DNA of 31,096 bases from a virus (lineage: Duplodnaviria; Heunggongvirae; Uroviricota; Caudoviricetes; Peduoviridae). The notes beneath the pieces are model-generated. The model ran no database searches and had not been told where the DNA came from. It saw only the letters and a list, made by a program, of their open reading frames with translations. Made by a program: the position numbers and the translations under genes. Positions within the stretch are counted from its first letter, which is position 1, and each line of letters begins with the position of its first letter. The stretch is from the IMG/VR virus record IMGVR_UViG_2974787870_000001. One strand, 5' to 3'. This document shows, piece by piece, positions 25,863 to 29,524 of the stretch.

Positions 25863-27025
25863 TGCTGGATGCGCTGACATTTGATGCAGGCAGTACGCTG
25901 ACGCCGGATTACATGCTGATGCTCGACAGCAGGGATATTACCGGCAATATCAGCGACCGTCTGATGAGCATGACTCTGACGGATAACCGGGGCTTTGAAG
26001 CTGACCAGCTTGATATTGAACTGAACGATGCCGACGGGCAGGTCGGGCTGCCGGTTCGTGGCGCTGTCCTGACGGTGTATATCGGCTGGAAAGGTTTTGC
26101 CCTGGTATGCAAAGGGAAATTCACCGTTGATGAGGTTGAACACCGGGGCGCACCGGATGTGGTCACCATCCGCGCCCGGAGTGCAGATTTCCGCGGGACG
26201 CTCAATTCCCGCCGGGAAGGCTCCTGGCATGACACCACGCTCGGTGCGATTGTTGAGGCGATAGCCTCCCGTAACAGGCTGGAAGCCAGTGTCGCTCCGT
26301 CACTGGCCGGAATTAAAATCCCGCACATCGACCAGTCGCAGGAGTCTGATGCGAAATTCCTGACCCGTCTTGCAGAACGCAACGGCGGTGAGGTGTCGGT
26401 AAAAATGGGAAAACTGTTGTTTCTCAAAGCGGGGCAGGGGGTGACGGCCAGCGGTAAAAAAATCCCGCAGGTCACCATCACCCGCAGCGACGGCGACCGC
26501 CATCATTTTGCGATTGCTGACCGTGGAGCCTATACCGGCGTAACGGCAAAGTGGTTACACACCAAAGACCCGAAGCCGCAAAAGCAGAAGGTAAAACTGA
26601 AACGCAAAAAGAAAGAAAAACACCTGCGCGCACTGGAGCACCCGAAAGCAAAACCGGTCAGGCAGAAGAAAGCGCCAAAAGTACCGGAAGCGCGCGAAGG
26701 TGAATACATGGCCGGTGAGGCTGACAACGTTTTTGCCCTGACCACGGTATATGCCACGAAAGCACAGGCCATGCGTGCCGCTCAGGCGAAGTGGGATAAA
26801 CTGCAACGGGGCGTTGCGGAGTTCTCCATCAGCCTGGCTACCGGTCGTGCTGATATTTACACGGAAACACCGGTTAAAGTATCAGGCTTTAAGCGCGTCA
26901 TAGACGAGCAGGACTGGACAATCACTAAGGTGACACATTTTCTGAATAATAGCGGCTTCACGACGTCCTTAGAGCTTGAGGTCAGGCTTTCTGATGTGGA
27001 GTACGAAACAGAAGATGATGAGTGA
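25862..27025 (+). CDS. D: Tail protein GpD
   Basis: 387-aa ORF with a lysine-rich internal segment; synteny. Confidence 0.88.
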   Translation: MLDALTFDAGSTLTPDYMLMLDSRDITGNISDRLMSMTLTDNRGFEADQLDIELNDADGQVGLPVRGAVLTVYIGWKGFALVCKGKFTVDEVEHRGAPDVVTIRARSADFRGTLNSRREGSWHDTTLGAIVEAIASRNRLEASVAPSLAGIKIPHIDQSQESDAKFLTRLAERNGGEVSVKMGKLLFLKAGQGVTASGKKIPQVTITRSDGDRHHFAIADRGAYTGVTAKWLHTKDPKPQKQKVKLKRKKKEKHLRALEHPKAKPVRQKKAPKVPEAREGEYMAGEADNVFALTTVYATKAQAMRAAQAKWDKLQRGVAEFSISLATGRADIYTETPVKVSGFKRVIDEQDWTITKVTHFLNNSGFTTSLELEVRLSDVEYETEDDE

Positions 27026-27106
27026 TGTAATTTATTTATCTGTTTGTTTTATAAGGATAAATTAACTAAAATGGCACCATCAACAAAACCGGAAGAGGTG
27101 CTCGCG

Positions 27107-27325
27107 ATGTTTCATTGTCCTTTATGCCAGCATGCCGCACATGCGCGTACAAGCCGCTATATCACTGACACGACAAAAGAGCGTTATCACCAGTGTCAGA
27201 ACGTGAATTGCAGCGCCACATTCATCACTTATGAGTCGGTACAGCGATACATCGTGAAGCCGGGAGAAGTCCACGCCGTAAGACCGCACCCGTTGCCGTC
27301 AGGGCAGCAAATTATGTGGATGTGA
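27107..27325 (+). CDS. ogr: Late-gene transcriptional activator Ogr (zinc finger)
   Basis: Start at 'MFHCPLCQHAAHAR' with a GGAAGAGG ribosome-binding site upstream; four-cysteine arrangement (C-x2-C ... C-x4-C); 72 aa. Confidence 0.9.
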   Translation: MFHCPLCQHAAHARTSRYITDTTKERYHQCQNVNCSATFITYESVQRYIVKPGEVHAVRPHPLPSGQQIMWM

Positions 27326-27335
27326 TCACAAAAAT

Positions 27336-27360
27336 AGCCCCTCAGTCGAGGGGCTTATTT
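27336..27360 (+). terminator. Intrinsic terminator after ogr
   Basis: AGCCCCTC-AGTC-GAGGGGCT hairpin followed by TATTTAT. Confidence 0.65.
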
Positions 27361-27598
27361 ATGGTCGATGTGGACGCTATGTGGACAGTGGTTGACATAA
27401 ATCCATTTATATCATCAGGTTAGGTGCTTTTTTGTGACACCATCCCTGTCTTCCCCCACATGATGTGGGGGTTTTTTTTATCAATTACTTACATGCAATC
27501 AAAAGTAAAAACAGGTACTTATCGAAAGCTGTAAGGGTTTGGAGCGGTTTCAAAATTTCTTGCGTGTGGACACTATGTGGACACTCAGAGGGGGAAAT
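27361..27598. other. attP: attP region with two pairs of direct TGTGGAC arm-type repeats
   Basis: ATGTGGAC at about 27368..27375 and 27380..27387; TGTGGACAC at about 27565..27573 and 27576..27584; pairs flank about 180 bp lying between ogr and the 3' end of int. Confidence 0.6.
27453..27479 (+). terminator. Strong hairpin plus T8 inside attP (CCCCCACA-TGA-TGTGGGGG-TTTTTTTT)
   Basis: Read directly; may be the 3' end of a host gene carried in the attP core to rebuild it after integration. Confidence 0.55.
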
Positions 27599-28609
27599 TT
27601 ATAACGTCACTCCGCCTTTTAGTGGATTCAGAGCGACGGCATTTTGCAGATAGTCAGGCGCAAGGTGCGCATAGGCCATCGTCTGCTGAATGCTCGCATG
27701 TCCCAGAATCTGTTGCAGTGCGATTATATTGCCCCCATTCATCATGAAATGGCTTGCGAATGTATGCCGCAGGATGTGGGTTGCCTGATTGGGTGGTATA
27801 TCAGGTTTCACTCTGCGTAAAATCCCGCAAAATTTCTCATAATCAACTTTGAATAATTTGGCGCTGGCCTCCTCTTTAACTTTTTTCTCCAGTTCCTCAG
27901 AAATCGGCACGGTTCGCTTTTTACCGTTTTTGGTTTTCAGGAAGGTAACCCTGCAATTTGTAATCTGTGCTGGTTTTAGCGTGGCAACTTCCGTCCATCT
28001 TCCTCCAGTGCTCAGACATAAAAGCGCGACAAGTAAGTCATCACCAGCCAAAACATTTAACAGTTTTTCGATTTCTGCTTTTTCCAGGAACGTCATTTCA
28101 GGGTTGGCCTCCGCCAGTGGCGGCAGTCCGTGAATTGGGTGTTGCCCGGAAAATTCATCCAATTGAATTAATTTTGTGAACATGCCGGATAATCGGTACA
28201 TGTCACGGTTTATCGTTGCGGCACTGATACCATCACGTAGTCGCATGGAACGATAATCCATCAAAGCCCTTTTGCTCATCCTGCTCACTGGTATATCACC
28301 TATGCTGCTGATGGTTTTGAGTAGATGATTAAACTCTTTTGTTCCATGCTCGTGGTTTTGCCCGTGATATTTCCACCAGATGTCCAGCAACTCACTCAAA
28401 GTCCGGCGGTCTGCTCGCTGGCCTCCCCATTCTTTCTGACTGGCATTGGCGATTGTGTATCGCTCAAAGGCTAGTGCTTCAGCTTTTCTTTCGAATTTCC
28501 TGCGGATGCGTTTTCCGTCGCGACCGCGAGGTCTAATGTCCACTTCATAGCGACCATCATCGAGCTTCTTAATTGCCATAAGAAAGCCCTCCGGCGCTGT
28601 ATTCACCAT
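27599..28609 (-). CDS. int: Tyrosine integrase
   Basis: 336-aa minus-strand ORF with a C-terminal 'HILRHTFASHF...LGHASIQQTMAYAHL' catalytic region; true start is probably the internal Met 'MAIKKLDDGRYEVD' near 28579. Confidence 0.9.
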   Translation of the reverse strand: MVNTAPEGFLMAIKKLDDGRYEVDIRPRGRDGKRIRRKFERKAEALAFERYTIANASQKEWGGQRADRRTLSELLDIWWKYHGQNHEHGTKEFNHLLKTISSIGDIPVSRMSKRALMDYRSMRLRDGISAATINRDMYRLSGMFTKLIQLDEFSGQHPIHGLPPLAEANPEMTFLEKAEIEKLLNVLAGDDLLVALLCLSTGGRWTEVATLKPAQITNCRVTFLKTKNGKKRTVPISEELEKKVKEEASAKLFKVDYEKFCGILRRVKPDIPPNQATHILRHTFASHFMMNGGNIIALQQILGHASIQQTMAYAHLAPDYLQNAVALNPLKGGVTL

Positions 28610-28648
28610 CTTGGTAGCAAATGGTGAAAATGTAATCTTTATATAGAG

Positions 28649-28942
28649 TTAGCCAATCCTTTTCGCGGAGTGGTTGGACTCTGTTGACTCTGGCCCAATG
28701 TGCGCGAGAGCCGGTGCGATTTGTCCTGCGTCCGGCGCGGTTTTATCTGTCATAAGCCATAGAGCATATTTTTGGAATGTGGGATGCATAGTGATTTTTA
28801 GCAAAGCTGTGCCACCGGGTTCAAAGTTTCCTCCTTCATATTTTTTAAGTGTGCTTAGCGGTAACTCTATGATTTCACAGAATTTTGATTGGCTTAGCCC
28901 TTCAGCCTCACGCAAGGCCTTAATCTTTTCGCTTAATTTCAT
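28649..28942 (-). CDS. C: Immunity repressor C (HTH, P2 C-like)
   Basis: 97 aa; HTH region 'LSQSKFCEIIELPLSTLKKYE'; C-terminal 'GQIAPALAHIG' resembles P2 C; divergent from cox. Confidence 0.85.
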   Translation of the reverse strand: MKLSEKIKALREAEGLSQSKFCEIIELPLSTLKKYEGGNFEPGGTALLKITMHPTFQKYALWLMTDKTAPDAGQIAPALAHIGPESTESNHSAKRIG

Positions 28943-29063
28943 TTGACATGGTGCCTATATAGGGACTAAATTCCCTCAAAACTGGAACCTATATAGGTTC
29001 CATTGATTTGAGAATAAACCAGCGTCTAAACGGTTTTGAGTGGTTTAGAAAGGGCTGGATCCT
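28943..29063. promoter_or_regulatory. Pe/Pc switch region: TTGACA -35 (28943..28948), candidate -10 TAAATT (about 28967..28972), two CCTATATAGG repeats (28954..28963, 28988..28997)
   Basis: Two identical 10-bp palindromic repeats flank the candidate -10 of the rightward early promoter; same arrangement as the P2 C operators. Confidence 0.55.
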
Positions 29064-29351
29064 ATGAGGGTACCATATATGGACGCTGAAAATTATGTGA
29101 TTCAGTATCCGCTTGATGCGGTTCATGTGGATAAATTTGCTGATTTATTAGGGAAGCCAAAGACAGCCGTCAGTGAAATGGTGAAGGCAAATAAATTACC
29201 AATTATTGAATTGCGTGATCCTTGCAAACCGAAGGCTCGTGCCGGTGAAAAATGGGTTTTCATTCCTGAGTTTAATCGCGCTGTACGTGAGGCGTTTTAT
29301 AACCGACCGGTTGAACAGCGCGATGCATGGCTTTTGTGGATGGGGTTGTGA
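29064..29351 (+). CDS. cox: Cox (excisionase/early repressor)
   Basis: 95-aa ORF; C-terminal 'RDAWLLWMGL' resembles P2 Cox; start may be the internal Met at 29079. Confidence 0.8.
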   Translation: MRVPYMDAENYVIQYPLDAVHVDKFADLLGKPKTAVSEMVKANKLPIIELRDPCKPKARAGEKWVFIPEFNRAVREAFYNRPVEQRDAWLLWMGL

Positions 29352-29353
29352 TT

Positions 29354-29524
29354 ATGAATGAGCCGCGTTATATTGCTCAGTTATTGCGTAACGAAAGCCC
29401 CAGGGCGATTGACTTCACCATCACCCACGGGAAGGGACGCAAGGGAATCATTATCCGCACCAAAAAACAGAGTCCGTTAAAAAAGGCTCTGACCTTTCTG
29501 AAAAGCCGGAGGGTATGGAAATGA
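29354..29524 (+). CDS. Small early-operon protein (56 aa)
   Basis: ATG immediately after the cox stop; stop overlaps the B start. Confidence 0.5.
   Translation: MNEPRYIAQLLRNESPRAIDFTITHGKGRKGIIIRTKKQSPLKKALTFLKSRRVWK

Follow-up and report, generated by a model that had tools for sequence, protein, structure and literature searches.

The segment at positions 27361–27598 of a 31,096-base P2-like phage genome (this whole stretch of DNA is referred to here as the window) is almost certainly the phage attachment site, attP, of a temperate phage of the WPhi/L-413C type, judged from its sequence and from its alignment with mapped sites, and the corresponding bacterial site, attB, lies between cpxP and fieF. 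Nothing that contradicts the attP assignment was found in this analysis. Both the attP and the integration site have already been described for WPhi and L-413C, and the current understanding of site-specific recombination is left unchanged by the finding. The published 47-nt core of these two phages predates the discovery of the small RNA CpxQ, and this core corresponds to most of CpxQ. No paper linking the WPhi/L-413C core or att site to CpxQ was found in the literature searchable here; the connection is a re-labelling of a known site and not a new mechanism.

Gene order around the attachment site

The window is a P2-like (Peduovirus) genome with the ORF order A ... Q, P, O, N ... D, ogr, [attP], int, C, cox, and its larger parts match many Peduovirus genomes at 95–98%. 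The segment of interest falls between ogr and the tyrosine integrase gene, which is where P2 keeps its attP. All four neighbouring genes were matched by Pfam:

27107–27325, + strand: ogr, late-gene activator of 72 aa and neighbour of attP on the P-arm side (Pfam Ogr_Delta, E = 1e-21; position as P2 ogr)
27599–28579, − strand: int, heterobivalent tyrosine integrase of 326 aa from MAIKKLDDGRY (Pfam Int_N, E = 1e-28; Phage_integrase, E = 1e-19)
28649–28942, − strand: C, immunity repressor, co-transcribed with int (Pfam HTH_3)
29064–29351, + strand: cox, directionality factor for excision and repressor of Pc, with the P′ arm as its expected site of action (Pfam Phage_Cox, E = 1e-23)

The int ORF reaches an upstream ATG at 28609, and its stop codon occupies 27599–27601. 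Since the core of the site is flanked by phage DNA on both sides, the region is attP and not a prophage junction, and the presence of attP rather than attL or attR confirms that the window is an excised or virion-form P2-like genome.

In the C–cox intergenic region, a direct repeat (T/A)GCCTATATAGG / AACCTATATAGG was observed at 28950–28965 and 28984–28999, 34 bp apart, adjoining a promoter-like site at 28943–28972. These repeats probably serve as operators for the C repressor in this immunity type.

Anatomy of the attP region

The features annotated between ogr and int in the P2 RefSeq record (NC_001895) were transferred to the window through an alignment of the window with P2, WPhi and L-413C. 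Together with the terminator, IHF and junction analyses, this gave the following map:

27336–27362, + strand: ogr/late-operon terminator, 8-bp GC-rich stem and T-rich tail (two-strand terminator scan; aligns with the P2 'rho-independent terminator for ogr transcript and F operon'; transferred coordinates 27336–27355)
27369–27387, + strand: P arm, two direct arm-type integrase sites, TGTGGACG (27369–27376) and TGTGGACA (27380–27387), 11 bp apart (counterpart of 'Int, P arm', a protein_bind feature of P2; transferred coordinates 27365–27392, repeats at 27369 and 27380)
27396–27428, + strand: putative P-arm bending element of IHF type, CATAAATCCATTTATATCATCAGGTTA (homologue of the IHF site annotated in P2; consensus match at 27410–27422 with 1 mismatch; transferred IHF region 27396–27435)
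27436–27482, + strand: core (common core, O region), GACACCATCCCTGTCTTCCCCCACATGATGTGGGGGTTTTTTTTATC, 47 nt (exact match to E. coli attB and to the attL/attR junctions; identical in WPhi and L-413C; transferred core region from about 27434)
27453–27479, + strand: copy of the cpxP/CpxQ intrinsic terminator, 9-bp stem CCCCCACAT/ATGTGGGGG, 1-nt loop centre, T8 (terminator scan; identical sequence downstream of E. coli cpxP)
27492–27563, + strand: P′ arm spacer, the positional equivalent of the P2 Cox-binding region (mapped from the P2 'Cox' protein_bind feature; transferred Cox region 27492–27566)
about 27526–27552: candidate Cox site GCTGTAAGGGTTTGGAGCGGTTTCAAA (position and weak similarity)
27565–27583, + strand: P′ arm, two direct arm-type integrase sites, both TGTGGACA (27565–27572 and 27576–27583; aligns with P2 'Int, P′ arm'; transferred coordinates from 27564, repeats at 27565 and 27576)

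The functional extent, from the start of the P arm at about 27365 to the end of the P′ arm at 27583, fits the segment 27361–27598 well.

The motif TGTGGAC occurs 7 times in the window against 3.9 copies expected on both strands, and four of the seven copies lie within 214 bp, all on the + strand, at 27369, 27380, 27565 and 27576. Together they make up two direct repeats of 19 nt, TGTGGACGCTATGTGGACA and TGTGGACACTATGTGGACA, with a within-pair distance of 11 bp. By simple arithmetic, a 238-bp stretch should contain about 0.03 copies, and four on one strand would be expected at about 1e-7 per stretch; the clustering is therefore not due to chance. Thus, the four copies in two direct pairs proposed in the preliminary description, which was made from the sequence alone, are borne out. 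Its statement that the pairs flank a hairpin also stands, while the separation of about 180 bp given there is corrected to a gap of 177 bp, or 196 bp from start to start.

The published arm-binding consensus of P2-type phages is tgTGGaCa (PMC3448106). The repeats of the window agree with this consensus, with at least two direct copies on each side of the core, and they are unchanged across P2, WPhi and L-413C. The position between ogr and int, the alignment with the P2 features and the agreement with the consensus together support the earlier proposal that the region is an attP with integrase arm sites around a core.

A different arrangement of arm repeats was seen in Pseudocitrobacter vendiensis. 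In its attL (locus L018), about 70–150 nt to the right of the core, the P′ arm repeats GTCCACACTGTCCACA correspond to the arm motif inverted with respect to the direct TGTGGAC pair in its own P arm (locus L059), and an additional GTCCACATGTGGAC palindrome is present closer to int.

The core is the 3′ part of the CpxQ small RNA

Complete E. coli genomes were searched with window positions 27300–27640 as a 341-bp query. Thousands of them contain an exact 47-nt match to query positions 137–183 (27436–27482 of the window), while a minority match either 137–341, which comprises the core, P′ arm and int, or 1–183, which comprises ogr, the P arm and the core. The matches to 137–183, 137–341 and 1–183 are the signature of attB, attL and attR, respectively. 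This is the genome search with the central segment that had been suggested beforehand, and it returned both the chromosomal site and the two hybrid junctions.

In an unoccupied genome, the 47-nt site begins 24 nt past the cpxP stop codon and ends 78 nt before the start of fieF. The cpxP 3′UTR, counted from the stop codon through the U-run, is 67 nt long, and it gives rise to CpxQ, an Hfq-dependent small RNA of about 60 nt that covers nearly the whole 3′UTR (PMC9438474, PMC4817254). The core consists of the 3′ 44 nt of CpxQ and of the cpxP 3′UTR, followed by ATC, and it thereby covers about three-quarters of CpxQ (its 3′ part), terminator and U-tail included. Only these 44 of about 60 nt (GACACC...U8) are held in the phage copy; the CpxQ 5′ part UUUUCCUUGCCAUA and cpxP are missing, with phage DNA as the left flank. 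The phage-borne segment is thus a partial CpxQ copy that acts as the att core, and not a CpxQ gene.

The strong hairpin with T8 that had been reported at 27453–27479 is exact: the arms 27453–27461 and 27463–27471 are 100% complementary, forming a perfect 9-bp stem, and the T8 run occupies 27472–27479. Its RNA fold has an energy of −19.7 kcal/mol (z = −2.6). The core reaches 17 nt to the left of this hairpin. The suggestion that the phage reconstitutes a host gene on integration, with the hairpin as the 3′ end of that gene, proved right, since the hairpin is the terminator of cpxP/CpxQ.

In lysogens, attL reads cpxP ... CCTTGCCATA, core, AATTACTTACATGC ... int, and attR reads ogr, P arm, core, fieF. 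The part of attL that lies right of the exchange point is phage DNA, and the phage copy completes cpxP/CpxQ in the lysogen with the sequence restored exactly. At attR, a second copy of the terminator separates fieF from the phage late genes, and fieF keeps its native upstream DNA unchanged. When occupancy was counted with junction-spanning queries in 5426 complete E. coli genomes, the empty site was present in 4591 and the junction of cpxP, core, P′ arm and int in 531. The remaining genomes presumably carry other elements or variant spacers.

Rfam matched no family named CpxQ, either in the window or in the E. coli attB. The only notable hit was Hrs1 (RF02628), on the opposite strand and below the gathering score, with 31.8 bits for window positions 27413–27479 (−) and 44.5 bits for the E. 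coli attB. The extent of the Hrs1 (Hfq-regulated sRNA 1) match is exactly that of the cpxP 3′UTR (CpxQ), but in antisense to cpxP. The gathering threshold is exceeded in Mixta, Kalamiella and Erwinia (58–68 bits) and not reached in E. coli; the Rfam matches at individual loci are:

locus L017, 5282–5355, − strand: Hrs1
locus L015, 3532–3605, + strand: Hrs1
locus L026, 182–255, + strand: Hrs1
locus L001, 2972–3044, − strand: Hrs1

At its start, the Hrs1 model has A7 and a hairpin, the pattern of a terminator in reverse complement, and Hrs1 therefore appears to be a model of CpxQ made from the wrong strand.

Breadth of the integration site

To survey other species, one genome per species was scanned with the query CCCTGTCTTCCCCCACATG, which yielded at least 120 loci. 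Among the matches listed, TTTTCCTTGCCATAGACACCATCCCTGTCTTCCCCCACATGATGTGGGGGTTTTTTTT follows cpxP with hardly any variation in Escherichia, Salmonella, Citrobacter, Klebsiella, Enterobacter, Kosakonia, Kluyvera and other genera, as well as in some Erwiniaceae. Also among the matches listed, P2-like prophages whose Int is 66–86% identical to that of the window occupy the cpxP site in Salmonella, Kosakonia, Citrobacter, Yokenella and Pseudocitrobacter, and in these diverged prophages the P-arm flanks are unrelated up to CACCAT (CCAT in Trabulsiella, locus L113), and the sequence to the right of that point is identical to the host. Matches of the 19-mer in Blautia (L020) and in an Actinomycetota MAG (L056) came without the hairpin and were rejected as chance.

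Because the core is most of CpxQ, which is nearly invariant across Enterobacteriaceae, diverged P2-like integrases of several genera share this target, and at least about 10% of complete E. coli genomes are occupied. The integration site of the phage is the cpxP–fieF intergenic region, and its natural hosts are E. coli and relatives.

Two cases look like tandem occupancy of the CpxQ attB, namely loci L108 and L007 of Kosakonia oryziphila (on one contig, about 32 kb apart) and loci L008 and L023 of Salmonella enterica s1 (about 32 kb apart). At these tandem loci, a first P2-like prophage (Int 67% identical) with TGTAGAC instead of TGTGGAC arm repeats is followed by a hybrid junction and a second element on the right. 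The second element in Kosakonia has TGTGGAC arms and an Int that is 87% identical over the available part of the contig. In Citrobacter amalonaticus P55 (locus L050), two core copies at 1053–1071 and 2891–2909 lie 1.8 kb apart with phage-type flanks facing inwards. This pair marks either a very small element or the remnant of a prophage at the cpxP site.

Accessory elements and proposed recombination mechanism

The putative IHF element lies in a stretch (ATAAATCC.TTTAT.TCA) that is conserved with P2, and its AAATCC(T/A)TTTAT part is kept in all diverged attR junctions examined. Matches to the IHF consensus with 1 mismatch, such as the one at 27410–27422, are as a class not enriched in the window (47 found, 38 expected). 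Separately, a perfect IHF consensus, TATCAATTACTTA, was noticed at 27479–27491, directly 3′ of the T8 run and overlapping the last bases of the core. ATCAA at this position is kept in most diverged phages using the cpxP site, and P2 has no annotated IHF site on the P′ side of its core.

On the P′ side, the P2 Cox box TTAAA(G/C)NC(A/C) is not expected, because the Cox protein encoded in the window is just 40% identical to P2 Cox. The Cox-box search returned nothing beyond a weak motif common to the P′ spacer and the Pe–Pc region, where GGTTTGGAGCGGTTT (27536–27550) weakly resembles GGTTTTGAGTGGTTT at 29032–29046 upstream of cox. In WPhi, the spot corresponding to the candidate Cox site matches the 12-nt direct repeat of Pe–Pc, and WPhi Cox has been reported to recognise a 12-nt direct repeat of this region (PMC5009727).

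Taken together, these elements suggest the following course of recombination. The mechanism of heterobivalent tyrosine integrases has been worked out for lambda and P2. By analogy, the conserved N-terminal domain of Int would bind the four TGTGGAC(A) sites, two per arm, and the divergent core-binding domain would bind the 47-bp core, so that Int bridges arms and core; host IHF would bend the P arm to form the intasome. The core would then recombine with the identical attB that begins 24 nt past the cpxP stop codon, across a short overlap common to attP and attB. Beginning at the exchange point, the phage copy contains all that remains of the cpxP transcript, namely the 3′ three-quarters of CpxQ, the terminator hairpin and the U-tail, and for this reason attL rebuilds an intact cpxP/CpxQ 3′ end, with attR acquiring the second terminator copy ahead of fieF. 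Cox bound to the P′ spacer is expected to direct excision. In this scheme, the layout of the region, its homology to the sites mapped in P2, the attB and the attL/attR junctions were shown by the analysis, and the protein binding, the role of Cox and the exact point of strand exchange are what we infer.

Position of strand exchange

Natural polymorphisms in the attL and attR of lysogens in other genera bound the exchange point to 27440–27471. On the left, the bound at 27440 is set by the attR of Trabulsiella (L113), which keeps the phage allele at 27439. On the right, the bound at 27471–27472 is set by Pseudocitrobacter, whose attL (L018) has the phage allele just past the stem and whose attR (L059) has the host allele; the tandem Kosakonia junctions (L108, L007) agree with it. 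Because CpxQ is too conserved, this mapping gives no sharp crossover, and the bounds from these lysogens do not separate two 7-bp overlap candidates found by an inverted-repeat scan:

27435–27451: candidate strand-exchange region B, (A/T)GACA-CCATCCC-TGTCT, with the 7-bp spacer at 27440–27446 (5/6 matches in attB, 4/6 in attP)
within 27453–27479: candidate strand-exchange region A, CCCCCA-CATGATG-TGGGGG, with the overlap at 27458–27464 (6/6 matches in attB and attP)

The favoured candidate for the overlap is CCATCCC at 27440–27446, flanked by AGACA/TGTCT, since identity with the host is required of a phage only over the stretch that runs from the overlap to where the host transcript ends, and in all lineages it is kept from CCAT/CACCAT on. 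An exchange in the terminator stem of the same attP, with CATGATG (27458–27464) as the overlap, is possible but rather unlikely. Among the inverted repeats with a 7-bp spacer, its CCCCCA/TGGGGG arms match best in attB as well as in attP, and CATGATG lies inside the interval bounded by the polymorphisms. However, the 17 nt to the left would in that case not need to be identical to the host, yet every diverged lineage keeps the identity from CCAT/CACCAT, with an unrelated flank beyond, and the terminator role fully accounts for the palindrome.

Possible regulatory effects of the CpxQ fragment

We regard it as very unlikely that the phage-borne CpxQ fragment is not only the attP core but also expressed as a regulatory RNA, or that antisense transcription of C and int perturbs CpxQ. 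By the first route, read-through from ogr or the late operon, at attP or attR, would end at the CpxQ terminator and give a truncated RNA that mimics or titrates CpxQ/Hfq; the 44 CpxQ nt in the core do include the Hfq-binding terminator and U-tail, and the T-tail of the ogr terminator is weak (TATTTATGGT). By the second route, the constitutive Pc-driven C–int transcript of the lysogen would run antisense over CpxQ and cpxP at attL and alter the Cpx envelope-stress response, and the CpxQ hairpin is without a T-run on the − strand, so it would not stop int transcripts.

Against these routes, the promoter scan of 27000–29400 found no sigma-70-like promoter between ogr and the core, and for TTGACA at 27392 no usable −10 at 16–18 nt. 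Moreover, the 5′-most 14 nt of CpxQ are not conserved in the diverged phages that use this attB, which have unrelated left flanks. Selection on the fragment is therefore explained by recombination and by the rebuilding of the host 3′ end. If the fragment were regulatory after all, the Cpx response would be subtly rewired in about a tenth of E. coli genomes, namely those with the attL junction.

The ogr terminator hairpin at 27336–27355 is terminator-like on both strands, with the tail ATTTTTGTGA on the − strand. From this arrangement, the int/C transcripts of the phage form may cross the entire attP and end at 27336–27355, and in the lysogen they may instead run antisense into cpxP.

Finally, it is extremely improbable that the hairpin is nothing more than a terminator of the phage itself, placed between the convergent ogr and int genes, with the TGTGGAC copies being operators or chance repeats rather than parts of a recombination site: the hairpin with T8 does score as an intrinsic + strand terminator between convergent genes, but ogr already has a terminator at 27336–27355, the homologue of the ogr/F-operon terminator annotated in P2; the repeats fall on the Int arm sites of the P2 annotation; and the hairpin lies inside the 47-nt host-identical block that forms the prophage junction in hundreds of genomes. 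As the sole explanation, a phage terminator is ruled out by the attL/attR junctions, and the hairpin may serve as a backup terminator next to its main role in attP.

Comparison with known attachment sites

The closest relatives of this attP are those of WPhi and L-413C, whose 47-nt core, arm repeats and IHF-region sequence are identical to the window. Over the 341-bp region, the identity is 98.8% for L-413C, 98.5% for HQ103 and R18C, and 89.9% for WPhi. Int is 99.4% identical to that of L-413C, 98.2% to that of WPhi and 52% to that of P2; the corresponding values for Cox are 98.9%, 82% and 40%, while C is 100% identical in L-413C and 56% in WPhi. Accordingly, L-413C, a phage of Yersinia and E. 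coli, differs from the window by few point differences only, whereas WPhi differs in the P′ spacer (the presumed Cox-binding region) and in the immunity genes, both of which are of the L-413C type in the window. WPhi and L-413C have been reported to have an identical attP core and to share one integration coordinate, MG1655 4104392 (PMC3448106). The WPhi prophage of E. coli W is located at cpxP–fieF (PMC3032704), and a P2-like prophage has been found at yiiP–cpxP in Salmonella (PMC6449608). On the basis of these identities, the phage belongs to the WPhi/L-413C integration-specificity group.

In comparison with P2, the order and spacing of the elements between ogr and int, the TGTGGAC(A) motif in two direct pairs and the IHF-region sequence are alike. 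In contrast, the P2 core AAAAAATAAGCCCGTGTAAGGGAGATT, annotated with a length of 27 bp, is unrelated to that of the window. The divergence of Int follows the same division, with 71% identity in the N-terminal arm-binding part (55 aa), 38.5% in the core-binding part and 55% in the catalytic part. Furthermore, the P′ arm of P2 overlaps the end of int, whereas that of the window lies 15 nt beyond the int stop codon, and the Cox boxes are different as well (PMC5009727). The P2 core presumably matches the 3′ end of the small RNA gene cyaR. The cyaR RNA is listed as an insertion site of P2-type prophages (PMC3032704).

A similar comparison can be drawn with lambda at the level of overall layout. In lambda attP, arm-type sites flank a core common to attB, IHF bends an arm, and an excisionase acts on one of the arms. 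The window shares with it the arm sites on both sides and a core equal to attB, together with a putative IHF-bent arm and a cox gene whose product is expected to act on one arm. It differs from lambda in having just two sites per arm, all direct, in the arm sequence and in the much longer identity with attB. The longer identity block is attributed to the rebuilding of the end of the host transcript.

In this last respect, the site resembles those of phages that integrate at the 3′ ends of RNA genes, such as 186 at tRNA-Ile, Fels-2 and SopEPhi at ssrA, and P2-type phages at rybB and cyaR, where the gene is restored at one junction (PMC3448106, PMC3032704). As in these cases, the phage carries the 3′ part of a structured and highly conserved RNA, here CpxQ within the cpxP 3′UTR; unlike them, the target of this phage is not a free-standing RNA gene.
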